From Candidatus Polarisedimenticolia bacterium (lineage in GTDB: Bacteria > Acidobacteriota > Polarisedimenticolia > Gp22-AA2 > AA152), in NCBI GenBank assembly GCA_035764505.1, contig DASTZC010000038.1:1-25392 (forward strand): 25,392 nt of DNA, read 5' to 3'. Below the pieces are notes generated by a model. The model had not been told where the DNA came from, made no database searches, and was given only the letters and a program-made list of their open reading frames with translations. Shown in pieces: positions 1-23,849 of this stretch (position 1 is the first letter of the stretch; each line of letters begins with the position of its first letter). The translations under genes were made by a program, and so were the position numbers.

Positions 1-297
1 CGCGCTGCAGAATTGCCGCCGCCTGGCGCGCCCGCAACGCGCGTATCCGCCTCTGCAAAATCGTGGTTCCACGATCCATTTTCCCCCTCCCGCGGGTGTA
101 CCACTAGAATGCCATGTCGCCGGCACGGCTGCAGGACGCCGGGCGATCCCGGCGTCCGCTCAGGGGGAAGAAATGCCCGATCCCGCCGATTTCATGGCAG
201 AATCGACCCTCCGAAGGCACGGCAGGACAGAGCGGGCCGCCTTGAGGCGGGGCGGAGCGGTGGCAAAGCGGCCAATGAAAGAATCCGGGAGCTGGCG

Positions 298-1203
298 ATG
301 AGCGGGATGCTGAAGCGTGTCGCAGGTTCGGCATGTCTGGTGGTCTTAACGACGCTTACCGTGGGCGCCGACACGACCGGCAATGCCTACCGGCAGGAAA
401 TCGAGAAGTGGAGACAGGATCGCGAGACCCGGCTCAAGAGCGACACGGGATGGCTCACGGTGGCGGGTCTGTACTGGCTCAAGGAAGGGGCCAACCGGTT
501 CGGAAGCGATCCCGCCGGTGACATCGTTCTGCCCGCCGCGGCGCCCCCCGTGGTCGGGGATTTCGTGGTGAAGGGCGATTCGATCATGGTGAAGGTGCAG
601 AGCGGCGCCACCGTCACCTCGGCGGGCGAGGCGATCACCGAGCTCGAGATGAAACCCGACAACCTCGGCGAGCCGACCGAGCTGGCGCTGGGCGACATGA
701 CGATGTTCGTGATCCAGCGAGGTGGCAAGTACGCCATCCGCCTGCGGGACAAGAACAGTCCGGCGCGCAAGGAATTCACGGCGCTGAAGTGGTATCCGAT
801 CAAGCCGGAATACCGCGTCACCGCCAAGTACACCGAGTACGTGCCGGCCAAGCAGATTCCCGTCCCCAACATCCTGGGGATGACCGAGAATCTTCCCAGC
901 CCCGGCTACGTCACCTTCGTCCTGAACGGGAAGAAGTACAAGCTGGACCCGGTCCTGGAGACGCCCGACGCGAAGGAGTTCTTCTTCATCTTCAAGGACA
1001 AGACCAGCGGCGAGACGACCTATACTCCGGGACGGTTTCTCTACGCGGCCTTCCCCGTGGAGGGAAAGGTCTTGCTCGATTTCAACAAGGCCTACAACCC
1101 GCCCTGCGCCTTCACCCGCTACGCCACCTGCCCGCTGCCGCCGTCACAGAATCGCCTGGAGGCGCGCATCGAAGCCGGCGAGCTGAAGTACGGCAATCAC
1201 TGA
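298..1203 (+). CDS. DUF1684 domain-containing protein with an N-terminal signal peptide.
   Basis: The ORF is 13..1203. The start is the ATG at 298, preceded by GGGAG, and gives MSGMLKRVAGSACLVVLTTLTVGA with a hydrophobic signal-like N-terminus. The YRQEIEKWRQDRETRLKSDTGWLTVAGLYWL stretch matches the conserved N-terminal block of DUF1684 proteins. Residues upstream of 298 are P/R/G-rich and look like high-GC junk. Confidence 0.7.
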   Translation: MSGMLKRVAGSACLVVLTTLTVGADTTGNAYRQEIEKWRQDRETRLKSDTGWLTVAGLYWLKEGANRFGSDPAGDIVLPAAAPPVVGDFVVKGDSIMVKVQSGATVTSAGEAITELEMKPDNLGEPTELALGDMTMFVIQRGGKYAIRLRDKNSPARKEFTALKWYPIKPEYRVTAKYTEYVPAKQIPVPNILGMTENLPSPGYVTFVLNGKKYKLDPVLETPDAKEFFFIFKDKTSGETTYTPGRFLYAAFPVEGKVLLDFNKAYNPPCAFTRYATCPLPPSQNRLEARIEAGELKYGNH

Positions 1204-1724
1204 AGGTTGCGCAGCACCTCGCGCTTGTCGCGGTATTCGGAGCGGATGGCGACGAACTCCGAGTGCGTGATCCCCAGCTCGGTCGCGATCTTCCAGATCT
1301 CGTTCTCCTCGGTGACCGAAATCGAGTCGTCGGCCGAGGAGACGGCGAACAGGCAGTGGAGCAGCGCCTCGCGCTGCGCCGCGTCGGCGATTTCCTTGAA
1401 CAGCTTGGTGATCGAGAAGTTCTCGGTGCCGCCGAACAGGCGGTTCTGACCCTTGGCGATCTCGACGACCAGGACCGCCTGCTCCTCGGGAAGATTGCCC
1501 CAGGCGGCAACTTGGCGCTGCATTTCCGCGGTCTCCTCCTCGCTGATGCTCAAATCGGCGTTGGCCACGCGGCTGAGGATGAAGGCGAAGCAGGCGAGAT
1601 AACGGGCGCGTGCGGCATCCATCGTCTCCAGGGAGCGGCTGATTCGCCGCAGGGTCTCGGAGTCGGAGCTGGAGTCCTCACGCGCCGCCTTGACGCCCAG
1701 CCAGTCGAATACCGAAAGCTTCAT
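1197..1724 (-). CDS. TerB-family (tellurite-resistance TerB-like) domain protein.
   Basis: The 175-aa ORF starts at the ATG at 1724 with GGGAGG five nt upstream. Amphipathic helical segments (ARYLACFAFILSRVANADLSISEEE, REALLHCLFAVSSADDSIS) are typical of TerB/DjlA N-terminal-domain repeats. The 3' end overlaps the DUF1684 3' end by 7 nt, so the two genes converge. Confidence 0.6.
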   Translation of the reverse strand: MKLSVFDWLGVKAAREDSSSDSETLRRISRSLETMDAARARYLACFAFILSRVANADLSISEEETAEMQRQVAAWGNLPEEQAVLVVEIAKGQNRLFGGTENFSITKLFKEIADAAQREALLHCLFAVSSADDSISVTEENEIWKIATELGITHSEFVAIRSEYRDKREVLRNLQ

Positions 1725-1743
1725 GGTTGCCTCCCGCCGCGCC

Positions 1744-1932
1744 TCATTCGGGCGGCGGCATGATGATCCACAGGATCAGATAGACCAGGATGCCGGGGAA
1801 GGCGATGCTGAGAACCGAGACCAGGACATAGCCCACCCGCACCACGGTCTTGTCCCAGCCCAGCCATTCCGCGATGCCGCCGCAGACCCCGGCAAACACC
1901 TTGTCCCGCGATTTCCTCAGAACTCCCGCCAC
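1744..1932 (-). CDS. PspC-domain protein, a small phage-shock-protein-C-like membrane protein.
   Basis: The 62-aa product reads MAGVLRKSRDKVFAGVCGGIAEWLGWDKTVVRVGYVLVSVLS. The R-x-x-D-K-x-x-xGVCGG-A-W motif followed by a transmembrane helix is the PspC signature. The start is GTG at 1930-1932, preceded by a strong SD (GAGGAGAGGAGGAGGA). The gene lies 19 nt upstream of the terB-like gene, which suggests a two-gene operon. Confidence 0.7.
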   Translation of the reverse strand: MAGVLRKSRDKVFAGVCGGIAEWLGWDKTVVRVGYVLVSVLSIAFPGILVYLILWIIMPPPE

Positions 1933-2116
1933 AATCCTCCTCCTCTCCTCCCGCCCGCGAGCATAACACCATCGTGCGAAGCCTTCCGGCTCGAAGCTCT
2001 TTCCGCCCTGAAGTGACAGGACTTGCCTCGACGGAATGTACTCGCTTTCAAGCCTTCAAACGAAAGCGCTCCCGGATAGTTCCCCTTGGCCGGCGCTCGC
2101 GTCAGGATGCAAAAAA

Positions 2117-2147
2117 GCGGGAGCCAATTCCCCTGCCGAGGGAATTT
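2117..2147 (-). terminator. Possible terminator hairpin downstream of the adenosyltransferase gene.
   Basis: On the minus strand the sequence reads AATTCCC-tcggcag-GGGAATT-ggctcccgc-TTTTTT. It has a 7-bp perfect inverted repeat, and the U-tract lies 9 nt after the stem. The support is weak. Confidence 0.3.
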
Positions 2148-2201
2148 ACTTATCGCCTCCTAGGGCACCATCGGGCGCGGGCCGGGAAGCCCGGGGAGGC
2201 G

Positions 2202-2750
2202 TCACGGCCGCCAGATCGGCTCGTCGACTCCCGCGAGGTGGTTGACCCAGCGCGCCATGACGAAGAGGAAATCGGAGAGGCGGTTCAAGTAGACGACGGC
2301 CTCCGGATTGACCTCCTCGGAGGCGGCCAGGCGCACGACGCGGCGCTCGGCACGGCGGCAGACGGAGCGGCATATCTGGAGCGCGGCCGCCGCCGGACAG
2401 CCTCCCGGCAGGATGAAGTTGCGCAGCGGCTTGAGGCCCTTTTCCCAGCCGTCGATGAGAGCCTCGAGGCGCCGGGCGCTCGCTGGATCGATGCTGACGC
2501 GCTGAGCGCCGGACGCCGGAGAGTCCGGTACCGTCGCCAGATCGGCTCCCAGAGCGAAGAGCTCCGACTGGATGGCGCCGATCTCCTTCAGCAGCGATTC
2601 CTCCTGGATCAGCGTCGCGACCCATCCCAGCTGGGCGTTGAGCTCGTCCACCTCGCCGTAGGCCTCCACCCGCAGGTCGGCCTTCGATACGCGCTTGCCG
2701 CCGAACAATCCGGTTTCGCCCGCGTCCCCCGTCTTCGTGTAGATCTTCAT
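2202..2750 (-). CDS. ATP:cob(I)alamin adenosyltransferase, PduO-type (MMAB-like).
   Basis: The 182-aa product begins MKIYTKTGDAGETGLFGGKRVSKADLRVEAYGEVDELNAQLG, which is the canonical PduO-type N-terminus (TGDxGxT..G.R.. K....R.EA.G..DEL). The start ATG is at 2748-2750. Confidence 0.85.
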   Translation of the reverse strand: MKIYTKTGDAGETGLFGGKRVSKADLRVEAYGEVDELNAQLGWVATLIQEESLLKEIGAIQSELFALGADLATVPDSPASGAQRVSIDPASARRLEALIDGWEKGLKPLRNFILPGGCPAAAALQICRSVCRRAERRVVRLAASEEVNPEAVVYLNRLSDFLFVMARWVNHLAGVDEPIWRP

Positions 2751-2802
2751 CGCTTTCGCTCCATGCAGGTTTCCGGCCTTCCCGCTCGCGCCACCCCCGC
2801 CG

Positions 2803-4728
2803 TCACGCTTCGTATCCCGAGGGCACGATCAGGACGGGACGGCGCGCCCTTTCCAGGATGACATCCAGCAGCCCGCGCCGCTCGCCGCCGCGGGCGCGCG
2901 CGGCGTGGCTGGCGCCCAGCGTAATCAAATCGAATTCGCCGGAGTGCGCCTCCTCGAGGATCTCGTTGCCGGTGTTACCCTGGCGGATCTTCATCTCGGA
3001 GGTGACGCCCATCAGCTTCAGGGTGAGGATGCCCCGGGCCAGCCGCTCCGTGGTCAGCTGCTTGAGGTATTCGCTGGTGTGCGGATCGGGAGCGGTGCCG
3101 GGCAGGAAAGGCTGCTCCTTCTCCATGACGTGCAGCAGCGTCGCCTCGGCGCCGGCGCGTCCGGCCAGACGCCCCGCGAACAGGACGTCGGATCGGCCCG
3201 ACACGCCCGCCGCCATGCAGATCAGCATTTTCTTCAGGAAGCGGCGCGGCTCCGGCACCATCAGGAGGGGAACGCGGGACAGCGCCAGCACCCGCTCGGC
3301 CGTCGAGCCGAGGGTCCGCCCGGGTCCGTGACGCCCGCAGCACCCGAGGACCACCACGTCGTGCGCCCCGCGCGCCAGCTCTTCCAGGATCCGGCCGGAG
3401 GCCTCTCCCTGACGGAAGCGCGTTTTTAGATTTGGAAAACGGGCGGAGTAGGCCTGCGCGGCCGAGGCCAATCCTTCGCGCGCCCGCGTCTCCTCGTTCG
3501 GCTTCTCCGCTACTCCCAGCACCTCGATGCGCCCGTGCATCTGCGAGGCGACCTGCGCGCCGAACTCCAGCGCCTTGCCGGCGAGCTCCGAGCCGTCGAT
3601 GCACACCAGCAGCGACACACCTTCGTGCGGGATGACGTGCAGGCTGCGAACCGAGAGCTGGACGGGTGTTCCCGGCAGCAGCGTAGGGTTGTCGCCGCTC
3701 TCGGGCCGCGCGTGCGCCAGCAGCGTCGGCTCCACCTGACCGTAGACCGGCTCGGGCGAGAAGATCGGCGTGCCGCGCAGCGCCGGGATGCCGATGCGCA
3801 TCCTCAGGAGAGGCCCGGCGTGCAGCGTCTCCTGAATCTTGCCCAATCCAATCCCGCGCCCGTCGTTGGCGGCGCCGCGGGGGCGCACCTCCAGGTCCTC
3901 GGGGCGGATCAGCACCTTGACCTCCAGCGACCCCTTCACCTGCGGCGCGTCCGCGGGGAGCGGCAGGATCGACTCGCCCACATGCAGCGCTCCCGATCGG
4001 ATCTCGCCGAGCAGGAGGTTGGCGTCCCCGAGGAAGCGGGCCACCATCTCGGTCTTCGGCTTGCGGTACAGCGAGGAGGGAGGGCCGATCTCGACAAGGT
4101 GGCCGCGCTCCAGGATGCCGATGCGATCGGCCAGCTCGAACGCTTCCTCCTGGTCGTGGGTCACCAGGATCGTCGTCACCTTGAGCTTGCGCTGAATCTC
4201 CTTGAGCGACTTGCGCAGCTGGGAGCGGGTGCGCGCGTCGAGCGCTCCGAAGGGCTCATCCATCAGGAGCACCGCCGGTTGATAGGCCAGCGCTCGGGCC
4301 ACCGCCACGCGCTGCTGCTGACCGCCGCTCAGGCGCTGCGGCAGCGCATCGGCCATCCCCTCCAGCCCGATCAGGTTCAGCAGCTCTTCCCGCCGGCGGA
4401 TGCGCTCGGCCCCGGGCACCTTGTGGATGCGCATCCCGAACTCGATGTTTCCTCCCACGGTCATGTGCTGGAACAGCGAGTAGTTCTGGAAGACGAAGCC
4501 GACGCCCCGCTTCTGCGGCGGCAAATGGTCCACGCGCTCCCCCTGCAGCAGCACCCGTCCCTCGTCGGGGCGGGTCAGCCCGGCGATGATGCGCAGCGCC
4601 GTGCTCTTGCCGCTGCCCGAGCCCCCCAGCAGGACGAACAGCTCGCCGTCGGCAACCTCGAGGGAGACCTCGTCCAGGGCCAGGTGCTGCCCGAAGCGCT
4701 TCGAGATGTGATCGACGATGATCGACAT
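2803..4728 (-). CDS. ABC transporter ATP-binding protein (CysA/ModC-like) fused to a TOBE-like domain and two C-terminal universal stress protein (UspA) domains.
   Basis: The product is 641 aa. The N-terminal ~235 aa carry Walker A (GGSGSGKST), the ABC signature (LSGGQQQRVAVARAL), Walker B (LLMDEPFGALD) and the H-loop (VTHDQ). A middle ~130 aa form an OB-like transport-associated domain. Two ~130-aa USP-like repeats follow, each ending in the G-x2-G-x9-G(S/T) ATP-binding-like motif (VVVLGCCGRHGPGRTLGSTAERV and DLITLGASHAARARGGERRGLLDVILE). The ATG at 4726-4728 overlaps the permease stop (TGATG). Confidence 0.85.
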   Translation of the reverse strand: MSIIVDHISKRFGQHLALDEVSLEVADGELFVLLGGSGSGKSTALRIIAGLTRPDEGRVLLQGERVDHLPPQKRGVGFVFQNYSLFQHMTVGGNIEFGMRIHKVPGAERIRRREELLNLIGLEGMADALPQRLSGGQQQRVAVARALAYQPAVLLMDEPFGALDARTRSQLRKSLKEIQRKLKVTTILVTHDQEEAFELADRIGILERGHLVEIGPPSSLYRKPKTEMVARFLGDANLLLGEIRSGALHVGESILPLPADAPQVKGSLEVKVLIRPEDLEVRPRGAANDGRGIGLGKIQETLHAGPLLRMRIGIPALRGTPIFSPEPVYGQVEPTLLAHARPESGDNPTLLPGTPVQLSVRSLHVIPHEGVSLLVCIDGSELAGKALEFGAQVASQMHGRIEVLGVAEKPNEETRAREGLASAAQAYSARFPNLKTRFRQGEASGRILEELARGAHDVVVLGCCGRHGPGRTLGSTAERVLALSRVPLLMVPEPRRFLKKMLICMAAGVSGRSDVLFAGRLAGRAGAEATLLHVMEKEQPFLPGTAPDPHTSEYLKQLTTERLARGILTLKLMGVTSEMKIRQGNTGNEILEEAHSGEFDLITLGASHAARARGGERRGLLDVILERARRPVLIVPSGYEA

Positions 4729-5567
4729 CAGGCCCCTTCGCGCGCCGGCTTGCGGGTGAAGCGGAGCAGGAACAGGAAGATCGAGAACGAGAGGACGGCC
4801 AGGACCGCGGCCACGGCGTTGGCCGTCTCGATCTGGCCCGCCTCGAACTGGGCGAAGATGAACAACGGGGCGGTCTGCGTCTGCATCCTCAGGTTGCCCG
4901 ACACCATGGCCGTGGCGCCGAACTCGCCGAGCGAGTGGGCGAAGGTCAGCAGCGTGCCGCTGAACAGGCCCCCCTTGAGAGCGGGCAGGATGACGTGCAC
5001 GAAAGTGCGCAGGCGCCCGGCCCCCATGGTGTAGGCCGCCTCCTCATAGGTGATCTCCAGCTCGTCCAGCACCGGCTTCACCGCCCCGAGCATGTACGGA
5101 AAGGTCACCAGGACGTGCGCCAGGAAGACGCCGAACGGCGCGAAGATCGGCTTGAATCCGAGAGGGACCAGGTAGCGCCCGAGCAGGCCGATGGGGCCCC
5201 ACAGGAGGATGAGCGAGGTCCCCATGACCACGGTCGGAATGGCCACCGGCAGGTTCACCAGGATGGTCAGAGGGCCGCGCCCGGGGAAGCGGTGTTTGGA
5301 GAGGACGTAGGCGGTGAAGGTCCCCACGAAGGCATTGGTCACGCTGGTCCACAGGGCGATCCAGAGCGACATGCGCAGCGCGAACTGGGCGTCGGGCAGA
5401 CGCAGCGTGGTGGCAAAAGTGCTCCAGCCGCCGCGGCCCGCGAACACGAAGATGGCGACGATCGGCAGGATCAGGAGCGGCGTGAGAATGGCCCAGAGGG
5501 CCCCGATGGTGAGGCGGTGGGTGAGGGTCCTGGCTCGTGTTTCGACCATCGCCTCGGAATCGATCAA
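4728..5567 (-). CDS. ABC transporter permease of the CysT/CysW/ModB type (sulfate or oxyanion importer membrane subunit).
   Basis: The 279-aa product has multiple transmembrane helices and shows the CysT/CysW-type pattern, including the region TANAVAAVLAVLSFSIFL and its neighbours. The ORF-track start at 5567 is a TTG that overlaps the binding-protein stop. An in-frame ATG at 5549 (MVETRAR...) is an alternative start. Confidence 0.8.
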   Translation of the reverse strand: MIDSEAMVETRARTLTHRLTIGALWAILTPLLILPIVAIFVFAGRGGWSTFATTLRLPDAQFALRMSLWIALWTSVTNAFVGTFTAYVLSKHRFPGRGPLTILVNLPVAIPTVVMGTSLILLWGPIGLLGRYLVPLGFKPIFAPFGVFLAHVLVTFPYMLGAVKPVLDELEITYEEAAYTMGAGRLRTFVHVILPALKGGLFSGTLLTFAHSLGEFGATAMVSGNLRMQTQTAPLFIFAQFEAGQIETANAVAAVLAVLSFSIFLFLLRFTRKPAREGA

Positions 5568-6619
5568 CGTCCCAGCTCCTTCAGCACCTGGCCTTTCCAG
5601 ATTTCCTCGTACACCAGGGCGTCGGCCGCTTCCCAGCCGCCCATGTCATCCACCGTGAACGTGCCGGTGAGGGGCGGGAGCAACGCGTTGGCCGAGTCCA
5701 GCGACGGGTTCACCGCCGAGCGGTAGCCGTGCTTGACGAAGAGCTTCTGCGCCTCGTCGGAGAAGAGAAAATCGCGCAGCGCCATGACCAGGTCGTGATC
5801 CCGGGCCCGGACGTTGCGATCCACCACCACGACCGGATGCTCGGAGTAGATGGTCTTCTTGGGACGGACGATCTCGACCTTCTCCTCCTGGCCCTGAGGG
5901 ACCAATCCCTGCTGCTCGTAGGTGATCAGAGCGTCGCCCAGGCCGTTCTCGAACTGGGTCCTCGCGCCGGCGGCCGAAGGAGACTGTCCGACCACGTTCT
6001 TCCAGATCCCGAGCAGCTGCGCCTTGCCGAGCTCGCGGTCTGCGGGATCGGTGCCGCCCAGATCGGAGACGGCCGAGCCGTACTCGGCCAGGATCGACCA
6101 CTTGGCCGCGCCGGAGGTGAGCGGATCCGGATGGATGACGCCGATCCCCGGGCGCGCCAGGTCGGCGAATGAGGCGATCCTCTTGGGGTTCCCCTTGCGC
6201 ACCAGGATCACGAACGGGGTGTGGTTCACCACGCCGTGCGCGGGGAACTCCCGCCAGTCGGTGGTCACGGCGCCGGCTTTCTTCAGCCGCAGGGCGTCCC
6301 CCTCGTGCGACAGGATCGCCAGCACCGCGGGGGCCCCCATGATGATCTGGTTGGTGATCGTTCCGGAGCCGGAAAAGGACGAGGTGAAGGTCAGCTCTTC
6401 GCCGGTCTTCTCCTTCCAGTGCCGGCTGAAGGCGGGGAAGACATCCTGGTTCATCGCTTCGCCCAGGATGCTGAAGCCATACACGACGACGACGCGGCGG
6501 TGCGGCTGGACGTGGCGCGCTTCCTGGATGGAGGGCCAGGCAAGGTAGACGGCGACGGCGAGGAGAACCACGACGAACGAGACGATCCCGGCGGTACGGC
6601 GGAACCTCGCGCTTGCCAT
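5564..6619 (-). CDS. Sulfate/thiosulfate-type ABC substrate-binding protein (Sbp/CysP family).
   Basis: The 351-aa product starts with an N-terminal transmembrane or signal anchor (IVSFVVVLLAVAVYLAW). Blocks AFSRHWKEKTG, SSFSGSGTITNQI, FVILVRKGNPKRI..DL..PG..VIHPDPLTSGAAKWSILAEYG and GLGDALITYEQQ line up with the conserved blocks of E. coli Sbp (AFSAHWKQQTG, GGSGKQA, VFLVRKGNPKQI, PNPKSSGGARWNYLAAWG, GIGDVLIAWENE). Confidence 0.8.
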   Translation of the reverse strand: MASARFRRTAGIVSFVVVLLAVAVYLAWPSIQEARHVQPHRRVVVVYGFSILGEAMNQDVFPAFSRHWKEKTGEELTFTSSFSGSGTITNQIIMGAPAVLAILSHEGDALRLKKAGAVTTDWREFPAHGVVNHTPFVILVRKGNPKRIASFADLARPGIGVIHPDPLTSGAAKWSILAEYGSAVSDLGGTDPADRELGKAQLLGIWKNVVGQSPSAAGARTQFENGLGDALITYEQQGLVPQGQEEKVEIVRPKKTIYSEHPVVVVDRNVRARDHDLVMALRDFLFSDEAQKLFVKHGYRSAVNPSLDSANALLPPLTGTFTVDDMGGWEAADALVYEEIWKGQVLKELGR

Positions 6620-6683
6620 GCTGCAGCTCCCGTGCCCCGTGGTTCCGGGGTCGATGTGACGCCGATTCAGGATCTTTGCCGGT

Positions 6684-6711
6684 GAAGCGAGGGAATCTTA
6701 GCGATCGCTTC
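6684..6711. promoter_or_regulatory. Palindromic element in the promoter region of the sulfate-type ABC operon.
   Basis: The sequence is GAAGCGA-gggaatctt-AGCGATCGCT-TC. It contains a perfect 10-bp palindrome AGCGATCGCT (6700-6709) inside a 7-bp inverted repeat, GAAGCGA...TCGCTTC. It lies 65-90 nt upstream of the binding-protein start codon. Confidence 0.3.
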
Positions 6712-6720
6712 CCCGCAGGG

Positions 6721-7794
6721 TCAAGAAAGCTCCCGCAGCGCCTCCGAGACGCGGCGCAGCCCCTCCTCCAGGTCGGCGGGGCGGATCCCGAAGCCGATGC
6801 GGAAGTGGCGCGGCTCCTCGAAGAAGCGTCCGGGGACGATCGACGTCGCGCGCGCGCGCAGCCGCTCGAGCAGGTCCTCGCCCACGCGTGAGCCCTTCAG
6901 CCGGGGGAAGACCGTCATCGATCGGGGCGGGACGACGGCTTCCAGGAGATCGTCATGCTCCGCCATGAATTCTCCGATGCGACGCCGGTTCGGCTCCAGG
7001 ATCGATCGGCTGCGCGCGGCGAGCGCCGGCAGGCGGGCGAAGGCCAGGCATCCCATGGCTTCGGTCGGCATCGGCCCGGTGGCCGCCATCAGATCGTGTA
7101 GGCGGCGCATCTTCTCGGCGCGGGTCGGGGATGCCAGGATCCAGCCGCAGCGCAGGCCGCTCAGGCCGTAGCTCTTGGTGAGGCTGTTGGTCGCGACGAA
7201 GGCCTCTCCCAGGGTCGCGGCCGAGGGTGGGGCTTCTTCGAACAGGCTGTCGCGATAGACCTCGTCGAGCAGAATCGGAATGCCGGCCTCCGACGCCAGA
7301 TCCCCCAGCGCGGCGAGATCGGCGGGATCGGCCACGACACCGCTCGGATTGTGGGGGCTGGTCATTACGATGAGCCGGGTTCGCGGCGTCAGCAGCCCGC
7401 GCAGCGCGTCCACATCGATGCGGTAGCGTCCTTCCAGGGTCCGGGAGAAGCGCTTCACCTTCGCGCCCAGGAACTGTGCGGCGCTGAGCAGCGGCTCGTA
7501 GACGGGACGCTCGATCAGCACCTCGTCGTCGCGCTCGACCAGTGAAGCCAGGGCGAGAAAATTGGCGCCCGAGGTTCCCTGGGCCAGGACCACCTGGTCG
7601 GTGCCCACGCCGTAGGTCGAAGCGATCGCTTCCTTCAGCGGCGGCCAGCCGTCGGGATTGACCCCCTGAATGGGGATCGTCTCGCCGGCGATGGGGAACT
7701 CCTCGCTCGTGCAGGCCACGAGACCGCTGTTGGCCAGGTTGTAGCGCGCCGGCGCGTGTGCTTTCGCCCAGGCCATGTAGGCGCATTGTTTCAT
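6721..7794 (-). CDS. Pyridoxal-phosphate-dependent aminotransferase (class I/II fold).
   Basis: The six-frame ORF runs to 8424, but the protein-like part starts at MKQCAYMAWAKAHAPARYNLANSGL. The ATG at 7792-7794 forms an ATGA overlap with the upstream permease stop. The sequence contains a PLP-lysine region, NSLTKSYGLSGLRCGW, with the SxxK-like motif typical of aminotransferases, plus the segment SPHNPSG. The N-terminal extension in the track is compositional junk that overlaps the permease gene. Confidence 0.8.
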   Translation of the reverse strand: MKQCAYMAWAKAHAPARYNLANSGLVACTSEEFPIAGETIPIQGVNPDGWPPLKEAIASTYGVGTDQVVLAQGTSGANFLALASLVERDDEVLIERPVYEPLLSAAQFLGAKVKRFSRTLEGRYRIDVDALRGLLTPRTRLIVMTSPHNPSGVVADPADLAALGDLASEAGIPILLDEVYRDSLFEEAPPSAATLGEAFVATNSLTKSYGLSGLRCGWILASPTRAEKMRRLHDLMAATGPMPTEAMGCLAFARLPALAARSRSILEPNRRRIGEFMAEHDDLLEAVVPPRSMTVFPRLKGSRVGEDLLERLRARATSIVPGRFFEEPRHFRIGFGIRPADLEEGLRRVSEALRELS

Positions 7795-9092
7795 CCTCGG
7801 ACCTCCGGGATGCCGGCGGCGCGTGCCGCCCGGGAGCGCCAGAAATAATAAACGGGAACCCCCAGGAGAATGACCAGCGAGCCCATCAGCGCGTTGCGCG
7901 GGTCGGCTACGAAGGTGTTCAGGACGATCCCGGTCCCCGCGGCGATGAACAGGATCGGGGTCACGGGATAGAAGGGAGTCGGGAACGGACGCGGCGCGCC
8001 GGCACGGCTGCGGCGGAAGACCAGCAGCGCCACGCCGGCGAGCGCGAAGAAAATCCAGTCGGCGAAGACGGTGAAGCCCAGGAGCCGATCGTAGGTGTTG
8101 GTCAGGGCGAAGACGGCCGCCAGGGCTCCTTGGAGCAGGATGGCATAGGTGGGCGCCTTGAAGCGCGGGCTCACGCGCGCCAGCTGGCGGAAGAAGACGC
8201 CGTCGGCGGCCATGGCGTAATAGACGCGCGGCGCCGCGAGCAGCGACAGGTTCATGAAGCCGAAGGTGGAGACGACGATCAGCAGGCTCATCGCCTTGAC
8301 TCCTGCTTCCCCGGCCAGCCGCCCCGCTACCTCCGCCGCCGGCGTGCGGGTGGCCGCCAGCGCCGGCGCCCCCAGGACGTGCAGGTAGGCGACATTTGCT
8401 CCCACGTAGACCACGATGACGCACAGCACGCCGACCAGGATGGCGCGCGGCAGGTTGCGAAGGGGCTCTTTAACCTCCTCCGCCACGTAGTTCAGGTTCT
8501 GCCAGCCGCCGTAGGCGAACATCGCCGGCACCAATCCGGCGAAGAGCGCCGAAATCAGAGCGAATCCCCTCAGCCCCTCCGGCGCGACGGGCGACAGCGA
8601 GATTCCCGAAGCCCGGGTGAGAGCGAAGGCGCCGACAATCAGCGCGGCGAGGGCCAGGGTTTTCCCGAAGGTGATCACGTTGATCAGGATCGCCCCCGGC
8701 TTGATGCCGAGCGCATGGAAGCCGGCGACTCCCAGGAGGATCGCGACTGCGAGCGGCACGACCGCGGCGCGTCCGAATCCCGCCAGGCGGGCCACGTACT
8801 CCGAGAAGGCGACCGCCACCGCCGCCGTGGCGCCGGATTGGATGATGAACAGGAGCGACCAGCCGTGCAGGAACGCGACAAGTGGATGGAACGCCTCGCG
8901 GAAGAAAGCATACTGGCCTCCCACTCTGGGAAGCACGGTGCTCAGCTCGGCGAAGACGAAGGCCCCGGCGAGCGCAATCAGCCCCCCGGCGATCCAGACC
9001 AGCAAGATGAGCAGTGAAGTTCCGACCTTCTGCGCCACGACGTAGGAGTTCACGAAGATGCCCGAGCCGATGATGCCGCTCAGGACGATCAT
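7791..9092 (-). CDS. APC-superfamily amino acid permease. The true start is probably upstream, up to 9155.
   Basis: The 433-aa product opens directly on the transmembrane-helix-1 motif MIVLSGIIGSGIF. About 12 transmembrane helices, a GGQYAFFREAF loop and the overall layout are typical of APC transporters. The reading frame stays open upstream (TSTRSPPPPEGGSLDPSPTTESPFARSLTLFDAT) until a TAA. A strong SD (GGAAGGAGGA, plus 9159-9168) sits 4 nt before an in-frame CTG at 9153-9155. See findings. Confidence 0.8.
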   Translation of the reverse strand: MIVLSGIIGSGIFVNSYVVAQKVGTSLLILLVWIAGGLIALAGAFVFAELSTVLPRVGGQYAFFREAFHPLVAFLHGWSLLFIIQSGATAAVAVAFSEYVARLAGFGRAAVVPLAVAILLGVAGFHALGIKPGAILINVITFGKTLALAALIVGAFALTRASGISLSPVAPEGLRGFALISALFAGLVPAMFAYGGWQNLNYVAEEVKEPLRNLPRAILVGVLCVIVVYVGANVAYLHVLGAPALAATRTPAAEVAGRLAGEAGVKAMSLLIVVSTFGFMNLSLLAAPRVYYAMAADGVFFRQLARVSPRFKAPTYAILLQGALAAVFALTNTYDRLLGFTVFADWIFFALAGVALLVFRRSRAGAPRPFPTPFYPVTPILFIAAGTGIVLNTFVADPRNALMGSLVILLGVPVYYFWRSRAARAAGIPEVRG

Positions 9093-12947: not shown

Positions 12948-15900
12948 ATGCGTCCCGTCATGTCGCGATCCCGCATTATTCTCGTCGCTGTCCTGGCCCT
13001 CGGCGCCGCCTACCTCGCCGCTTCTTTCCGCCACTTCGAGGAAAAGCCCTGCTTTCGGGTGGTCGACGCGCCGCTTCTGGGCTCTGCTTCCCGCCTGGTC
13101 CAGCCGGGCTGGCGCTTCGTGCCGCGCTTCCTGGGGCGTGTCAGTGAATACCCCACCGGCGAGGTGAAGCTGCGGGACGACCTGACGGGAGCCGCGGCGG
13201 CGCGCAGCCGCGAGGGGGCCAAGGTCGACGTCGAGGCGGAGCTGACCTACTCGATCCCGCCCGAGGGAGTGCTCGCGCTGCACCGGGAGCACGGTCCCCG
13301 CTTCGAGACGGAATGGCTTTCCGAGAAGCTGCGCTCGCGCACGGCGGAGCGCATCGCGTCGGTCTCCTACGATCTGGTGCGCAACCGCGACCCGGAGCTG
13401 GCCAGCGGCGTCCGGGGCGCCCTCAAAGCGGATGTGGAGTCCTCGGGCATCCGGCTCGGCGCGCTGCGGATCTTCGAAGTGGCCGCGGTCGGGGAAGCCT
13501 CCGGGGAGATCCTGAAGGTCCCTGCGCAGCCGCTGGCGAAGAAGGTGGTGCTCGTCGGTCTGGACTCCTTCGACTGGCGCATCGCCGATCCCCTGCTCAG
13601 GCAGGGGAAGATGCCGAACCTCGCGGCGCTCATCGCCCGCGGCACGCGCGCCAATCTGCGCACCTTGAGGCCCATCCTCTCGCCGGTCATCTGGACCAGC
13701 ATCGCCACCGGCGTGAAGCCGTCGCGCCACGGCATCGTCGATTTCGTCGTGACTTCGCGCGACACCGGGGCCCTCGTGCCGGTCACCAGCGCCATGCGCC
13801 AGGTGCCGGCGCTCTGGACGTTGCTGAGCCGCCAGGGGCTGGAGGTCAGCGTGGTCGCCTGGTGGGCCACCTGGCCCGCGGAGACGGTGCGCGGCAGCGT
13901 CGTCACCGACCGCGTCGCCTTTCAGCTCTTCGAAGACTCGATCAAGCAGGACTGGCGCAGCACCGATCCGGAGAAGAACAAGGGGAAGACCTACCCGCCG
14001 GAGCTGTTCGACGCGGTGCGCGACAAGATCCGGGTGCCGGCCGAGGTCACCGATGAGCAGGTGGCCTGGTTCCTGCCGGGGGGCCGCTTCCCGGCGAATC
14101 TGACGGCGCCGCAGGCCGATCTCCTGAACCGCTTCCGCACCGTCATCGCCGCCGGAGAGACCTACCATGCGGTCGCCCTGGATCGGCTGCGCCGTCAGGA
14201 CGCTGCCCTGCGGATGTTCTACTACGAGGGGCCCGACACCACCTCGCACCTCTTCATGAAGTACCGGCCGCCGCTGCTGGCAGGGACTTCGCGCCAGGAG
14301 ATGGAGCTGTTCGGCGGAATCATCGATCGCTACTACGAGCGCCAGGACCGCTTCCTTGGCGAGATTGTGGAGGCGGCCGGCAGCGACTGCGATTTCCTGG
14401 TGGTCTCCGACCATGGCTTCAAGTCGGACAACAACCGTCCGCCGAATTCCGATTCGACCATCGAGGCGGGGAAGGCGGCCGACTGGCACACGCCGGTCGG
14501 GGTGTTCGTCGCCGCCGGTCCGGACTTCAAGGCAGCCTCCGAGCTGGGCGCCGCCTCCGTCCTGGACGTGGCGCCGACGGTGCTGACCCTGTTCGGGATG
14601 CCGGTGGCGCGCGACATGGACGGACAGCCACTCTCGGAGGCCTTCAAAGCGGACTTCCTCACCGCCCATCCGGTGGCCTGGATCGACTCCTACGGCGGTG
14701 TGCGCCAGCAGGAGGCGGAATCGGCGGCGGTCGCCTCGGCGGGCGATGCCGCGATGATCGAGAAGCTGCGCTCGCTCGGCTACATCGGCGAGGAGCGCCT
14801 GACGGCGACCAACAACCGCGGCATCCTGGCGCTGGAAGACGGCGACGTCGACTCCGCGATCGGCAGCTTCGAGAAAGCGCTGGGCTCCGGTGGGGAGATC
14901 GAGGAGATGGCGCTGACCAACCTGGCGCGCGCCTGGCTGGTGCGCGGCGACCTGGTCAAGGCCCGGGAATATGCCGAGAAGGCGATCGCCACGGGATCCG
15001 GCAACAAGGTCGCAATGACCATCCTTTCCGGTATCCAGGTCAAGGAGGGGGACACGGCGGGCGCCGAGAAGAGCCTGCGCGCGGCGCTGGACATCGATCC
15101 GACCCTCGTCCTGGCCCATTCCAAGCTCGGCGAGCTGTACCAGAAGCAGGGAAACCTGGACGCCGCGCTGGCGGAGTTCCACAAGGTGATCGACATTGCC
15201 CCGCTCAGCCCCATCGAGTTCAACAACATCGGCAACATCCATCGCAAGCGCGGCGAGCTGGACCAGGCGATGGAGGCTTACCGTGATGCGCTGCGCTGCG
15301 ATGCCCAGTACATCGGCGCCTACAACAATCTGGGGCTCTGCCTGCAGGAGAAAGGGAAGCTGGACGAGGCGGAGGCGCTGTACTCCAAGGCGCTGGCGAT
15401 CCGCCCCGAGAACCCGATCCTGCGCAACAGCCTGGGCACGCTGCGCGCTCTCAAGGGGGACAAGGAAGGGGCGATTGCCGAATTCGACCGGGCGACGAAG
15501 GCCGATCCCGACTGGCCGGTGGCGCAGGGAAACCTTGCCACGCTCCTGTTCGAGACCGGCAAGCTGGATCAGGCCCGCCCCGCGTTCGAGCGCTGGGCCA
15601 AAGCCGAGCCGAAATCGACCGAGCCGGTCCTCGGGCTGGGTCTGCTCAGCCTGATGCAGAAGCGCCGTGAGGAGGCGGTCGGCTACTTCCAGCAGGCGCT
15701 TTCCCTGGACCCCGGCAGCTTCCGGGCCCACGTGGCCCTGGGAGAGATTCTCCTGAAGGAAGGAAAGCTGGACCAGGCGCAATCTCACCTGGAGAGCGCC
15801 GCCCGCATCGAGCCCGACAGCGCGCGCGTCTACGGCTCGCTGGGAAGGATCTACATGCAGCGTGGCCGCAAGCAGGAGGCCGTTCAGGCCTTCCGCCACT

Positions 15901-15962
15901 CGCTCCGCCTGCAGCCCGATCAGCAGGAGATCAGGTCCCTCCTCTCGGGCCTGGGCGGCTGA
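12948..15962 (+). CDS. Multidomain protein: N-terminal transmembrane anchor plus SPFH/band-7-like domain, an alkaline-phosphatase-superfamily core of the type I phosphodiesterase/nucleotide pyrophosphatase type, and C-terminal TPR repeats.
   Basis: The product is 1004 aa. Residues 1-~190 have a transmembrane helix (IILVAVLALGAAYLAA) followed by an SPFH-like stretch (VQPGWRFVPRFLGRVSEYPTGEVKL...VDVEAELTYSI). Residues ~195-600 have VVLVGLDSFDWRIADPLLRQGKMPNL...LSPVIWTSIATGVKPSRHGIV (metal-binding D, nucleophile T/S region) and VVSDHGF (the DHG motif), typical of the AlkP/ENPP core. Residues ~620-1000 contain at least eight TPR-like 34-aa repeats (A..A...Y..AL..DP patterns). Confidence 0.8.
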   Translation: MRPVMSRSRIILVAVLALGAAYLAASFRHFEEKPCFRVVDAPLLGSASRLVQPGWRFVPRFLGRVSEYPTGEVKLRDDLTGAAAARSREGAKVDVEAELTYSIPPEGVLALHREHGPRFETEWLSEKLRSRTAERIASVSYDLVRNRDPELASGVRGALKADVESSGIRLGALRIFEVAAVGEASGEILKVPAQPLAKKVVLVGLDSFDWRIADPLLRQGKMPNLAALIARGTRANLRTLRPILSPVIWTSIATGVKPSRHGIVDFVVTSRDTGALVPVTSAMRQVPALWTLLSRQGLEVSVVAWWATWPAETVRGSVVTDRVAFQLFEDSIKQDWRSTDPEKNKGKTYPPELFDAVRDKIRVPAEVTDEQVAWFLPGGRFPANLTAPQADLLNRFRTVIAAGETYHAVALDRLRRQDAALRMFYYEGPDTTSHLFMKYRPPLLAGTSRQEMELFGGIIDRYYERQDRFLGEIVEAAGSDCDFLVVSDHGFKSDNNRPPNSDSTIEAGKAADWHTPVGVFVAAGPDFKAASELGAASVLDVAPTVLTLFGMPVARDMDGQPLSEAFKADFLTAHPVAWIDSYGGVRQQEAESAAVASAGDAAMIEKLRSLGYIGEERLTATNNRGILALEDGDVDSAIGSFEKALGSGGEIEEMALTNLARAWLVRGDLVKAREYAEKAIATGSGNKVAMTILSGIQVKEGDTAGAEKSLRAALDIDPTLVLAHSKLGELYQKQGNLDAALAEFHKVIDIAPLSPIEFNNIGNIHRKRGELDQAMEAYRDALRCDAQYIGAYNNLGLCLQEKGKLDEAEALYSKALAIRPENPILRNSLGTLRALKGDKEGAIAEFDRATKADPDWPVAQGNLATLLFETGKLDQARPAFERWAKAEPKSTEPVLGLGLLSLMQKRREEAVGYFQQALSLDPGSFRAHVALGEILLKEGKLDQAQSHLESAARIEPDSARVYGSLGRIYMQRGRKQEAVQAFRHSLRLQPDQQEIRSLLSGLGG

Positions 15963-17730: not shown

Positions 17731-18741
17731 CTATTTGCCCCCGCCGAACTTGAAAGCCACTCCGGCGTGCAGCGAGTTGAAGGCGATGCTGTCGCGGCCG
17801 CGATTGTCGGCGGGCCCGATGGCGAAGTGGCCCCCTTCGTTCTGGGGTATGGGGTCGGTCACCAGCCCGTCCCAGTTGGACATCGCATAGCCGACCCAGA
17901 AGTCGAGGGCCCCGTAGCTCCAGACCGCTTTCAGATCGTAGTCGCGGATCTCGCCCCGGATGTTGTCATCCGATCCCGTGAACTCGTCGTCTGCCGGGCC
18001 GCTCTGGGCGAAGCTCTGGAAGGAGTTGCCTTCCGTGTCAGCCATCAGGAACGACCAGGTGGCGCTTCCCGCCATACCGAAATGCTCGGTGAAGCCCCAT
18101 TTCACCTTGGCGCCCAGCTTGAAGCCCAGTGCGTCGGACTCGAAGTGCTTCCCCTGGCGGTAATAGTTGCCGTAGTTGTCGGCCCCCTCGAAGGTCTGGT
18201 CCTCCTCGTAGGAAGCGACCCGCAGCCCCGCCAGCCAGCCGATCGTGACTTTCTTGCCCGGCTCGAAGGAGCGGATGTAGTCGATGTCGATCGTGTCGGC
18301 CTGGACCTTTCCGGTCGTGCTGAAAGTGACGCCCGCCGGATTGTAGATGTACATGCCGCCGGAGTTGCCGTAGCCGAAGATGGTCGGATAAACCCCGCCG
18401 AGCAGGGTGTTCTCCTCCTTATCCTCGTTGTCGAAGCCCCACCACGAGACCTGCAGCTTGCCCATCTCGCCGAAGCCGTAGCCGAAGGTGATCTTCGCGG
18501 TGAAGTCGGAGTCGTTGTCGAGGACGAGACGATCCATCGTGGTCGTCGTGCCGAAAACGACGTGGTTGGCATAGTGCTGATCGAGGCTGGTGGGCTGGGT
18601 CATGCCCAAATCGAGCGCGACGTAGAAACCCTTGAAATCGGTATCGTCGGCCAGAGCTGGAGACAGGCCGAAAGAGAGGGTGAGGAGCCCGACGGCGAGC
18701 CACAGGACGCGGCCGGCCGGGACCCCGGTGCGAATCTTCAT
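17731..18741 (-). CDS. Outer-membrane beta-barrel protein (putative porin, MOMP-like), paralog 1.
   Basis: The product is 336 aa. A signal peptide (MKIRTGVPAGRVLWLAVGLLTLSFGLSPALA) is followed by alternating amphipathic beta-strand patterns rich in G/Y/F/W. The C-terminus is ...AGVAFKFGGGK, with an aromatic near-terminal strand. Confidence 0.65.
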   Translation of the reverse strand: MKIRTGVPAGRVLWLAVGLLTLSFGLSPALADDTDFKGFYVALDLGMTQPTSLDQHYANHVVFGTTTTMDRLVLDNDSDFTAKITFGYGFGEMGKLQVSWWGFDNEDKEENTLLGGVYPTIFGYGNSGGMYIYNPAGVTFSTTGKVQADTIDIDYIRSFEPGKKVTIGWLAGLRVASYEEDQTFEGADNYGNYYRQGKHFESDALGFKLGAKVKWGFTEHFGMAGSATWSFLMADTEGNSFQSFAQSGPADDEFTGSDDNIRGEIRDYDLKAVWSYGALDFWVGYAMSNWDGLVTDPIPQNEGGHFAIGPADNRGRDSIAFNSLHAGVAFKFGGGK

Positions 18742-18862
18742 TCAGTGGTCTCCCTTGGTTGGTTCACATAGGAATTGGATCGGAAAACCTACGGAACGCG
18801 GCTGGGGTTTCTGCAACCACCTCCTTTCCGGCGAAGCGAAGCGTCGAAAGCTTTGCGGGTTA

Positions 18863-19882
18863 TCAGGGAGAGGTGAAGCGCTGCCGGCCGAAGCGCCAGA
18901 GCAGGCCCACCTCGAAGCTCGAGAAGGATAAGGAATCGTCGACGGAGCTCTCGCCGACCCCTTGGAACCCTACGGCCGGGACTTGATCGCGTGGGAAGCC
19001 GTTCCACTGGGAGTTCGTCAGCCCCAGGGAGATGTCGACCGGGCCGGCCGACCAGACGCCGCGCAGCTCCAGGTCCAGGATGCTGCCGCTGAAGTTGTCG
19101 TCTTTTCCGGAGCGCGACTCACTGAGCCCGAGCTCGACAATCCTCTGGCTGGCTTTGCCTTCCGAGGTCCCGATGAGGGACGAATAGGCCATTCCGGCAC
19201 GCAGGCTGAAGTGCTGGCTCAGATGAAAATCTCCCGCCGCGCCCACCCGGATGCCGATGGCGTCGACGTCCAGGCTCTTGTCCTGAAGGTAGGTGTAGTA
19301 GCCGTCGAAGCCCTCGAAAGACTGTTCCTGCTCGTAGCTGGCCGTACGCAATCCCGCGAGCCATTTGAGACCGAAATGCTCGGTGATCTCGAGGGTGTCG
19401 GCGTAATCCAGATCCCAGGTGGAGGCTTTGATGTTGAAAGTTCCGGCGAAGCTCACCGGCAGCGTCGAGTCGCAACCGCCGGAGCTCTGGTTGCACAGGT
19501 AGAAAGAGCCGTAATAACCGTAGCCGAAAAGCTGTGGGTAGACGGTGCCGGTCTGGGTGAAGTTCTCCGCATCGTCGTTCTCGAAGGTCCAATACGAGAC
19601 CTGGATGCGGCCATGGTTCGGGCCGAACGCATAACCCAGCCCGGCGCCCCATGCCAGGTCGGCGTCGTGCTCGAGTGAGATGCGCTCCGACCGGGGGGCT
19701 GAGACGAGGGCGAGAGGCTGATCCACTCCGGTAGGCTGCGCCAGCGCCAGATCCAGCGCCAGCAGCCAGCCGCGCGCATCCTCGGCGTGCGACGCTCCCG
19801 TGAACAGGAAAAACAAGGAAAGACAAAGCCATGCGTGGCGCATGGCGCTCGAGCGGCAACGTTTTTTCGCTTGGGTGGTCAC
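18863..19882 (-). CDS. Outer-membrane beta-barrel protein (putative porin, MOMP-like), paralog 2.
   Basis: It is a paralog of 17731..18741; compare GLKWLAGLRTASYEQEQSFEG with TIGWLAGLRVASYEEDQTFEG, and QVSYWTFENDD with QVSWWGFDNED. The most likely start is the GTG at 19882, 5 nt after AAGGAG, giving MTTQAKKRCRSSAMRHAWLCLSLFFLFTGASHA-ED, a signal peptide. The six-frame ORF extends to 19888. Confidence 0.65.
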   Translation of the reverse strand: MTTQAKKRCRSSAMRHAWLCLSLFFLFTGASHAEDARGWLLALDLALAQPTGVDQPLALVSAPRSERISLEHDADLAWGAGLGYAFGPNHGRIQVSYWTFENDDAENFTQTGTVYPQLFGYGYYGSFYLCNQSSGGCDSTLPVSFAGTFNIKASTWDLDYADTLEITEHFGLKWLAGLRTASYEQEQSFEGFDGYYTYLQDKSLDVDAIGIRVGAAGDFHLSQHFSLRAGMAYSSLIGTSEGKASQRIVELGLSESRSGKDDNFSGSILDLELRGVWSAGPVDISLGLTNSQWNGFPRDQVPAVGFQGVGESSVDDSLSFSSFEVGLLWRFGRQRFTSP

Positions 19883-20026
19883 GCACACTCCTTCCGGAAC
19901 GGACCTCCCCCGTCGGGGGCGCCCTTTAATAATCCGAGCCCACGGGGGAAGTCAAGTCTGATCTTGGATTTGGCCAGCTAACCCCGCCTGCGGGAAGCTC
20001 GCGAGGAGGAGCGGAAGCCTGCGGGA

Positions 20027-22509: not shown

Positions 22510-22518
22510 GGCTTCCTC

Positions 22519-23457: not shown

Positions 23458-23849
23458 CGCTCGGCTCCTCACAGCTTGCCGGATAGAGAGGGTGACTTGG
23501 GTTGGATGGAACAGCTTGAATTGTGCGTCAAGGCCCTGCCGATCGCCGGAATCGAGCGGTTGGGACGAGACTGAACAGACAACTGCAACGAATGAGCGTC
23601 TGTTGTGACCTTGCTTCCTGCAAACCCTGGGGGAAAGAGCGGGGTGAATCCTAGGATCGGAACGTGAAGCTTGTCAAACGATTTCTTGTGAGGAGTGAGG
23701 AAGGCTCGAAGAGAGATCAGCGGCTTCCCGCCTTCCCCACGGCACTTTTCCGCGCTCCTTCCTCTCTCCTCCAGCAAAATCTTCGCTTCCCGCACGCCTG
23801 ATTTGAGTCCCGGATGAGGATCAAAACCCTTGCGGGAGCAATCCGCCTG

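Follow-up and report, generated by a model that had tools for sequence, protein, structure and literature searches.

A sulfate-type ABC importer with a single permease gene and tandem universal stress protein domains fused to its ATPase

What would an importer of the sulfate type do with two universal stress protein (USP) domains attached to its ATPase? This question is raised by three adjacent genes at positions 2803-6619 of a 25,392-nucleotide stretch of DNA from Candidatus Polarisedimenticolia bacterium (assembly GCA_035764505.1, contig DASTZC010000038.1, positions 1-25,392), which is referred to below as the window. The genes encode a substrate-binding protein (SBP), one ABC permease and the fused ATPase. 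We find that this cassette belongs to a coherent, widespread and uncharacterised family, in which an ABC importer carries an additional, presumably regulatory, module. As to function, we lean, by a modest measure, towards a type I importer that takes up a tetrahedral oxyanion (sulfate being the most probable, with thiosulfate as a possibility), in which an Sbp-family SBP and a homodimeric permease would work with two CysA-type ATPases whose tandem USP domains act as a cytoplasmic allosteric gate. The features on which the argument rests are the following.

5564-6619, minus strand: Sbp/CysP-family periplasmic SBP, 351 aa, with an N-terminal hydrophobic anchor or signal
4728-5567, minus strand: ABC permease, single gene, 279 aa, BPD_transp_1, with the EAA coupling loop YEEAAYTMG...ILP
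2803-4728, minus strand: USP-fused ATPase, 641 aa
4021-4728, minus strand: nucleotide-binding domain (NBD), ATPase residues 1-236, with Walker A GGSGSGKS, signature LSGGQQQR and Walker B LLMDEP
3625-4020, minus strand: CysA/MalK-type regulatory beta-barrel ('TOBE-like'), ATPase residues 237-368, according to the model and Foldseek
3247-3624, minus strand: USP1, ATPase residues 369-494, putatively of the ATP-binding (MJ0577/UspFG) type, Pfam Usp
3301-3345, minus strand: USP1 glycine motif G-x2-G-x8-G-S-T, residues 462-476, aligning to the ATP-loop of 4WNY and Rv2623
2806-3246, minus strand: USP2, ATPase residues 495-641, Pfam Usp, without a canonical ATP motif
3163-3225, minus strand: family-specific loop between strand 1 and helix 1 of USP2, residues 502-522, L-I-C504-x-A-x-G508-x-x-G511-[KR]512-x-D514...G519-R520-x-A522
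6695-6724, minus strand: promoter-like site TTGACC-18-TAAGAT in the non-coding gap before the SBP gene, with only a weak match to the consensus

The ATPase and its fused USP module

The N-terminal part of the ATPase was assessed by domain scans and by structure prediction. Pfam places ABC_tran at residues 18-160 (5.7e-34), and the Walker A, signature and Walker B motifs are invariant in the alignment of homologs. In the AlphaFold2 (AF2) model of the whole chain (predicted local distance difference test, pLDDT, 84.8; predicted template modelling score, pTM, 0.79) residues 1-368 superpose on the complete CysA 1Z47 (Foldseek against the PDB: E 2.8e-37, target-normalised template modelling (TM) score 0.88, 39% identity over about 369 columns), and the next matches are PotA, FbpC, MalK and ModC. 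Residues 237-368 are all-beta in this model. When scanned alone, this region remains below threshold both for CysA_C_terminal (25.2 bits, cutoff 29.7) and for TOBE_2 (15.7 bits, cutoff 21), and a Pfam scan of the ATPase gave no match to TOBE PF03459. The initial annotation had named a TOBE domain at this place, a call which the scores do not bear out; the middle domain is a CysA/MalK-type regulatory barrel. Among the NCBIfam models, the ATPase reaches 299.3 bits on sulfate TIGR00968 (cutoff 342.75) and 179.4 on the modC model (cutoff 285). Since residues 1-368 cover the whole of 1Z47, it can be concluded, as far as the model goes, that the ATPase is a complete CysA-type subunit including its regulatory barrel, with approximately 273 residues added.

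These additional residues are recognised as Usp in two stretches (91.7 bits together). With each half scanned alone, USP1 scored 60.6 bits and USP2 41.9 bits on Pfam Usp (PF00582), both above the gathering score of 24, and a Pfam scan of USP2 alone with E up to 1 gave only Usp, without resemblance to other families of its superfamily. The earlier claims that the ATPase exceeds CysA by about 280 aa, and that the surplus consists of two USP domains, are thus borne out by Pfam as well as by AF2 and Foldseek. A dedicated AF2 model of the tandem (pLDDT 90.1, pTM 0.89) matches Rv2623 (3CIS; E 3.6e-15, TM 0.73) and ATP-bound TTHA0350 (3AB8; TM 0.75-0.79); further Foldseek matches include UspE and TeaD. 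Further down the ranking come the C-terminal regulatory domains of KCC/NCC and of a prokaryotic cation-chloride cotransporter (CCC), with E values of 1e-7 to 1e-6. According to the model, the two USP domains pack as an intramolecular pair like those of tandem-type USPs. The two-domain fold is common to the window tandem and to Rv2623 (3CIS/2JAX) and TTHA0350 (3AB7/3AB8) (TM 0.73-0.79), and USP1 keeps the ATP motif. However, both of these proteins are free-standing and hold ATP in both domains, whereas the window tandem is fused to the NBD of an importer, is 18-25% identical to them and, in USP2, has lost the ATP motif and gained a conserved loop of its own.

An exhaustive HMMER search with the tandem only, taken to E 1e-10, gave 342 representatives. 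Full-length fusions made up about 13 of the 150 best, and most of the others among these 150 were stand-alone tandem USPs of 265-300 aa with 28-39% identity, which are the likely source of the module carried by the ATPase.

The fusion itself is not peculiar to this contig. Full-length homologs of the same architecture (600-700 aa, 43-94% identity) number at least 124. A protein-database search yielded at least 120 clusters of 620-657 aa at 99-100% coverage, all annotated ABC_tran + Usp, with source names from Polarisedimenticolia, Acidobacteria, Manganitrophus/Nitrospirae, Chloroflexi/Anaerolineales and Armatimonadota. The Candidatus Manganitrophus enrichment is among the sources of an ortholog. 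A genome scan added Candidatus Fraserbacteria, Acidobacteria gp11 and Blastocatellia; every genome was a metagenome-assembled genome (MAG), and as the scan was seeded by a single USP2 peptide pattern, its taxon list is a sample and not a census. The fused family is therefore present in five or more phyla, including Acidobacteriota, Nitrospirota, Chloroflexota, Armatimonadota and Fraserbacteria. The junction between NBD and USP is aligned gap-free among the homologs, with H364 invariant.

Although stand-alone tandem USPs in the above range of size and identity are common, and one ATPase (locus L013) is split in two open reading frames (ORFs), we reject with near certainty a frameshift or misassembly that joined cysA to a separate downstream tandem-uspA gene, given at least 124 independent fusions in many assemblies and phyla, both parts within one ORF in 52 metagenome loci (see below), the conserved junction and the whole-chain pTM of 0.79; the fusion proposed at the outset thus stands. 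In L013 (5181-7185, an Acidobacteria gp11 MAG) the fused ATPase appears as two overlapping ORFs, residues 1-153 and then 159 to the end, reflecting a pseudogene or else a frameshift error.

Far from being rare, the architecture forms a large cohesive family, which carries the JGI label 'ABC-type sulfate/molybdate transport systems ATPase subunit/nucleotide-binding universal stress protein'. In the searchable full-text literature we found no description of an ABC-NBD/USP fusion or of a CysA-USP protein. Thus the initial suggestion that ABC-TOBE-USP-USP is an undescribed architecture holds for the literature, but not for databases, where a multi-phylum family has already been machine-annotated. 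'Split' evidence of the Rosetta-stone type was also considered and dropped: most stand-alone genomic tandem USPs do not adjoin a transporter of the SBP/permease/ABC-USP type. Suggestive split-type cases were confined to L034 (NBD and SBP upstream), L037 (another ABC importer downstream) and L082.

The single permease and the transported anion

The permease (BPD_transp_1, 3.7e-15) is encoded by the only BPD_transp_1 gene of the operon, lying between the SBP and ATPase genes, which agrees with the single permease noted initially. As an independent test, we performed a metagenome scan seeded with a permease-only alignment and scored the downstream gene; this gave 80 loci, 54 of them judgeable. 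The NBD and the USP tandem were found in one ORF in 52 of the 54, with exactly one permease each (52/52). The other judgeable loci were L148, with a probable unfused ATPase, and L120, which is ambiguous, while the rest of the 80 were cut by contig ends. L148 (3437-6467) is probably a natural variant that lacks the fusion: the SBP and a single permease (61% identical, the most divergent) precede an ATPase of 375 aa that has no USP. As only 132 nt of contig follow the ATPase, a separate USP gene further downstream is possible.

The order SBP, one permease, ABC-USP is kept in L001, L003-L007, L010-L015, L082, L084 and L085, and was observed in every main-clade fusion locus with enough upstream DNA, in Nitrospirota, Chloroflexota, Fraserbacteria and Acidobacteriota. 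A USP-fused ATPase (NBD 45-54% identical) also follows two CysT/W-like permeases in L020 (842-7179), L021 (787-7179; Blastocatellia) and L083 (4119-8893). Since these three loci pair the fused ATPase with two permeases, we conclude that the linkage of the USP fusion to a single permease is strong but not obligate. In L020 a gene for a Porin_O_P-type anion porin (496 aa, 1.8e-34) stands between the permeases and the ATPase, and at the corresponding point L021 has a gap of equal size.

Conservation differs between the parts of the cassette. Identity to the window protein across phyla is 67-74% for the permease, 49-56% for NBD and barrel, 48-55% for the SBP and 32-38% for the USP tandem; with the close relative L004 included, the permease alignment gives 60-88% identity and a mean column identity of 73%. 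A permease more conserved than the ATPase core is the reverse of the order usual in ABC importers. The permease presumably acts as a homodimer.

Which anion is carried was assessed from the SBP, the permease and the ATPase. The SBP is a member of SBP_bac_11 (Pfam, 3.1e-30) and matches Salmonella Sbp 1SBP (E 3.3e-38), SubI 6DDN of M. tuberculosis (2.5e-35) and also Xanthomonas Sbp, in accordance with the Sbp/CysP-like binding protein of the initial annotation. Ser45, Ser130-Gly131, Gly132, Ala173 and Trp192 of 1SBP are what we take to be its sulfate hydrogen-bond donors. In the window protein S85 corresponds to Ser45, S169-G170 to Ser130-Gly131 and A216 to Ala173; Tyr (Y234) stands in for Trp192, as it does in SubI, and Ala for Gly132, where 62 of 65 orthologs have Gly. 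The equivalents of Ser45, Ser130-Gly131 and Ala173, together with the Tyr at the place of Trp192, are invariant in 65 cassette SBPs. In the NCBIfam scan the SBP reached 149.8 bits on the sulfate model TIGR00971 (cutoff 155.5) and 30.6 on ModA TIGR01256 (cutoff 62.5), and it matched no Tup or Wtp binding-protein model. The permease reached 214.9 bits on sulfate TIGR00969 (cutoff 240), 195.5 on CysT, 183.9 on Mo_ABC_porter TIGR01581, 181.8 on CysW and 152.5 on ModB, all below the cutoffs; the top scores of both permease and ATPase are those of sulfate families. From these sequence comparisons, sulfate or thiosulfate appears as the best-supported substrate.

Several observations weigh against this assignment. 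The SBP, the permease and the ATPase all fall short of the curated NCBIfam sulfate cutoffs, and for this reason the substrate is not secure. No sulfate-assimilation genes recur beside the cassette in the loci compared, and the single permease resembles Mod, Tup and Wtp systems. Furthermore, molybdoenzyme genes are present at two loci: in L003 the cassette is followed directly by a molybdopterin oxidoreductase operon, and in L001 it has an Oxidored_molyb gene nearby. The importer might accordingly take up molybdate or tungstate (or selenate or chromate), combining a Mod/Tup/Wtp-like layout, in which one permease is the rule (ModABC, TupABC, WtpABC), with an Sbp-fold binding protein; the permease scores on TIGR01581 and ModB, the molybdoenzyme genes and the missed sulfate cutoffs would all fit. 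However, we regard this as unlikely. The SBP scores 149.8 bits on the sulfate model and 30.6 on ModA, it keeps the Sbp hydrogen-bond donors and the SubI-type Tyr throughout the 65 orthologs, and the permease scores highest on sulfate models. Moreover, the USP-fused ATPase is found with two-permease CysTW-like systems as well, and the molybdoenzyme neighbours are not recurrent: in eight long contigs of different lineages no neighbour recurred beyond the cassette, and Rrf2, MerR, PAS, histidine kinase/response regulator and molybdoenzyme genes were seen without recurring, the Rrf2 regulator near the cassette of one locus.

Among the closest known systems is the CysPTWA/Sbp importer of E. coli and Salmonella, with SubI-CysTWA of M. 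tuberculosis. The window locus is like it in the anion site of the SBP, in a permease closest to CysT/CysW, in the full CysA part and in the operonic order. It differs in having one permease instead of CysT and CysW, in an ATPase that continues for about 273 residues where CysA has no tandem USP, in the Tyr that stands for Trp192 of Sbp (as in SubI), and in proteins scoring below the NCBIfam cutoffs. ModABC, by contrast, has a ModA-type SBP, which the window SBP does not resemble (30.6 bits against a cutoff of 62.5).

USP motifs, a proposed gate and its alternatives

We surveyed 124 full-length fusions for the canonical ATP motif of USPs, G-x2-G-x(7-10)-G-[ST]. In USP1 it is complete in 36, including the window protein, and incomplete in 88. 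The window sequence reads G462-CC-G465-RHGPGRTL-G474-S475-T476 and is accompanied by a D378-G-S loop; the x8 spacing is one residue short of the G-x2-G-x9-G-[ST] phosphate loop, and D378 is the Asp after strand 1. With such a full ATP-type pocket, USP1 of the window protein probably binds adenine nucleotide. In USP2 the canonical motif was found in none of the 124 fusions. Of the intact ATP-type glycine motifs which had been reported for both domains, that of USP1 in the window protein (aligned to 4WNY and Rv2623) can thus be retained, but not that of USP2.

What is conserved in USP2 is of another kind. Among the 124 fusions C504 is kept in 123, G508 in 116, G511 in 112, K/R512 in 121, D514 in 113 and R520 in 121, and D600 (123/124) and G605 (124/124) are also near-invariant. 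Nowhere else in the C-terminal half is conservation as high as at these USP2 positions, to which L502, I503, A506, G519 and A522 also belong. The strict loop pattern occurs in 92/124 fusions, compared with 11/106 tandem USPs of stand-alone size, some of which may be fragments of fusions. In the model the loop connects strand 1 with helix 1, and G605 comes after strand 4; judging from the topology of the USP fold, both would line the position of the nucleotide/phosphate pocket. Since the loop is near-invariant and the USP1 ATP motif is mostly incomplete, it seems more likely that the family-wide function sits in the USP2 loop rather than in ATP binding by USP1.

In the allosteric gate towards which we lean, each ATPase would consist of the NBD, the CysA/MalK barrel and then a C-terminal tandem USP folded like Rv2623/TTHA0350. 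By analogy with other importers, the two USP tandems would make up a platform on the cytoplasmic side, beneath the NBD dimer, and this platform would act as the gate: occupancy by a ligand would alter the packing of the tandems and so permit or prevent closure of the NBDs, and sulfate-type uptake would thereby track the internal state of the cell. The glycine-rich basic loop of USP2 would be the better candidate for a common regulatory site, while USP1 of the window protein may bind adenine nucleotide. ModC with its TOBE domain, MetN with its C2 domain, OpuA with its CBS pairs and the cation-chloride cotransporters with their USP-like C-terminal domains are possible analogues. Here, we infer both the binding of ligand by the USPs and the direction of regulation. 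The direct control of import by stress or nucleotides that was suggested initially is likewise a hypothesis. Two points tell against a gate of this kind. Since the USP1 motif is complete in only 36/124 fusions, adenine-nucleotide sensing via USP1 cannot, on the sequences compared, be a conserved function of the family, and the USP2 loop could instead be a protein-protein interface.

Several known systems lend themselves to comparison. ModC, MetN and OpuA are regulated via domains appended to their NBDs (PMC10710835; also PMC4245157). The trans-inhibited ModABC and MetNI-Q systems, with a homodimeric permease and an NBD-appended regulatory domain that could keep the NBDs apart, resemble the window locus by mechanistic analogy (PMC10710835, PMC4245157); however, the appended domain is TOBE or C2/ACT in these systems, whereas the window ATPase has a tandem USP atop a CysA-type barrel. 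Fusions of UspA to transporters, MFS proteins being mentioned, are described in a 2023 review as common, experimentally uncharacterised and possibly sensors of energy status (PMC10710835), and amino-acid permeases and cation exchangers are named as fusion partners in reviews of USP architecture (PMC12159084). Rv2623, itself a tandem USP, acts in trans as a negative regulator of the ABC transporter Rv1747, by protein-protein contact (PMC5549992); Rv1747, however, is an exporter and is contacted via an FHA domain, whereas the window system is an importer. TeaD is cited in PMC12159084 as regulating the TRAP transporter TeaABC. TeaD (3HGM) and the fusions to MFS proteins, amino-acid permeases and Na+/H+ exchangers have in common with the window protein that USP is coupled to a solute transporter, as a presumed energy or stress gate; but TeaD is a single-domain, trans-acting USP and the reported fusions concern secondary transporters, whereas the window fusion involves an ABC NBD. 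Cation-chloride cotransporters (KCC/NCC; prokaryotic CCC 3G40) also carry a C-terminal cytoplasmic tandem USP-like domain, but they have the APC fold and 8-17% identity, and the likeness to the window tandem is one of fold and position only.

A different function for the tandem, to which we assign a low probability, would be that of a structural or scaffold module, which stabilises the ATPase dimer or docks a partner such as a kinase, another USP or a regulator. Docking of this kind has parallels in the MalK regulatory domain with EIIA-Glc and MalT and in the KdpD USP domain with UspC. The lack of the ATP motif in USP2 of all 124 fusions and its incompleteness in USP1 of 88 would agree with such a role, as would the tendency of USP domains to dimerise and the fold match to the dimerising C-terminal domains of cation-chloride cotransporters. 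In L082 a stand-alone USP gene and a histidine kinase/response regulator pair precede the cassette, and Rv2623 affects its ABC transporter via protein-protein contact (PMC5549992). However, G508, G511, K/R512, D514, R520 and G605 of USP2 would form, if the USP fold topology is followed, a glycine-rich basic loop at the pocket position, which is more typical of a ligand site, and the cassette has no conserved partner gene across phyla. A further alternative is an enzymatic role.

It is also conceivable, though in our estimation rather improbable, that the USP2 loop (C-x-A-x-G-x-x-G-[KR]-x-D...G-R) represents a new type of ligand site in the USP fold, sensing sulfate, adenosine 5'-phosphosulfate (APS), 3'-phosphoadenosine 5'-phosphosulfate (PAPS) or 3'-phosphoadenosine 5'-phosphate (PAP) instead of ATP. 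PP-loop enzymes, including ATP sulfurylase and PAPS reductase, belong to the same adenine-nucleotide alpha-hydrolase superfamily and bind phosphate at the position matching this loop. If true, the importer would be subject to product trans-inhibition through a USP, with a class of ligand and a logic not known for USPs.

USP domains are among the commonest prokaryotic domains of unclear biochemical role, and none of the transporter fusions noted has been characterised (PMC10710835). The present family offers a compact and abundant test case, with a well-understood type I importer engine, a solved CysA homolog and a USP module separable at residue 368, and it contains natural comparisons: USP1 motif present or absent, one permease or two, and a rare unfused ATPase. 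If the ligand and the way the gate works were established, a new class of post-translational control would be known for ABC importers, and this could explain how slow-growing Acidobacteriota, Nitrospirota and Chloroflexota of soil and sediment match costly sulfur assimilation to their energy state.

Gene junctions, flanking signals and neighbouring genes

The ORFs for SBP, permease and ATPase follow each other on the minus strand in this order and overlap. Both junctions were read directly: TTGA joins the SBP stop to the TTG start of the permease (4-nt overlap), and TGATG joins the permease stop to the ATPase start (1-nt overlap), in line with the translational coupling of the three genes described initially. 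From the TTG start the permease begins with 'MID', and because the Nitrospirota ortholog has the identical N-terminus, this start is supported. The N-terminus of the ATPase, MSIIVDHISKRFG, agrees with the family consensus in the alignment of homologs.

Ahead of the SBP gene lie roughly 100 nt without coding sequence. The promoter-like site listed above is the sole sigma-70-like match within 1100-7000, where shuffled sequence gave a mean of 0.4, and an Rfam scan of the whole window at gathering score found no RNA element or riboswitch in the operon leader. At the 3' side of the ATPase gene no intrinsic terminator was found in 2750-2803; the sole terminator-like match sits inside the TerB gene, on the opposite strand. 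Since no terminator was found there, the operon may be co-transcribed with the downstream adenosyltransferase gene.

This gene encodes a PduO-type cob(I)alamin adenosyltransferase (2202-2750, same strand) and lies only 52 nt past the ATPase stop. Further downstream are genes for a TerB-domain protein (1197-1724) and a DUF1684 protein (13-1203). The synteny of adenosyltransferase, TerB and DUF1684 (window 13-2750) is shared with the close relative L004 (9959-12266), not with other phyla. Upstream, at 6721-9092 on the same (minus) strand, lie genes for an amino-acid permease (AA_permease_2, 7.8e-55) and a class I/II aminotransferase, a pair which also precedes the cassette in L004. The aminotransferase has weaker Cys/Met-PLP and beta-eliminating-lyase matches too, and the ORF at 6721-8424 is over-extended, with the real start at about 7800.

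In L082 (1072-8890) a stand-alone 258-aa Usp gene lies directly before the cassette, its end overlapping the SBP start, and before it are found a PAS histidine kinase, an OmpR-type response regulator and a second SBP_bac_11 gene.

Elsewhere in the window, at 20065-23472 (minus strand), an MtrB/PioB-type outer-membrane beta-barrel porin (814 aa, PF11854 2e-67) adjoins a multihaem c-type cytochrome (317 aa, Paired_CXXCH_1, NrfB-like), forming a porin-cytochrome module of the extracellular-electron-transfer kind in a Polarisedimenticolia MAG. A 1004-aa protein encoded at 12948-15962 (plus strand) combines a Band 7/SPFH match, a type I phosphodiesterase/nucleotide pyrophosphatase domain and a long C-terminal TPR array. 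Finally, two adjacent paralogs (336 and 341 aa) at 17731-19888 (minus strand) have weak Legionella_OMP-family matches and are putative outer-membrane proteins.

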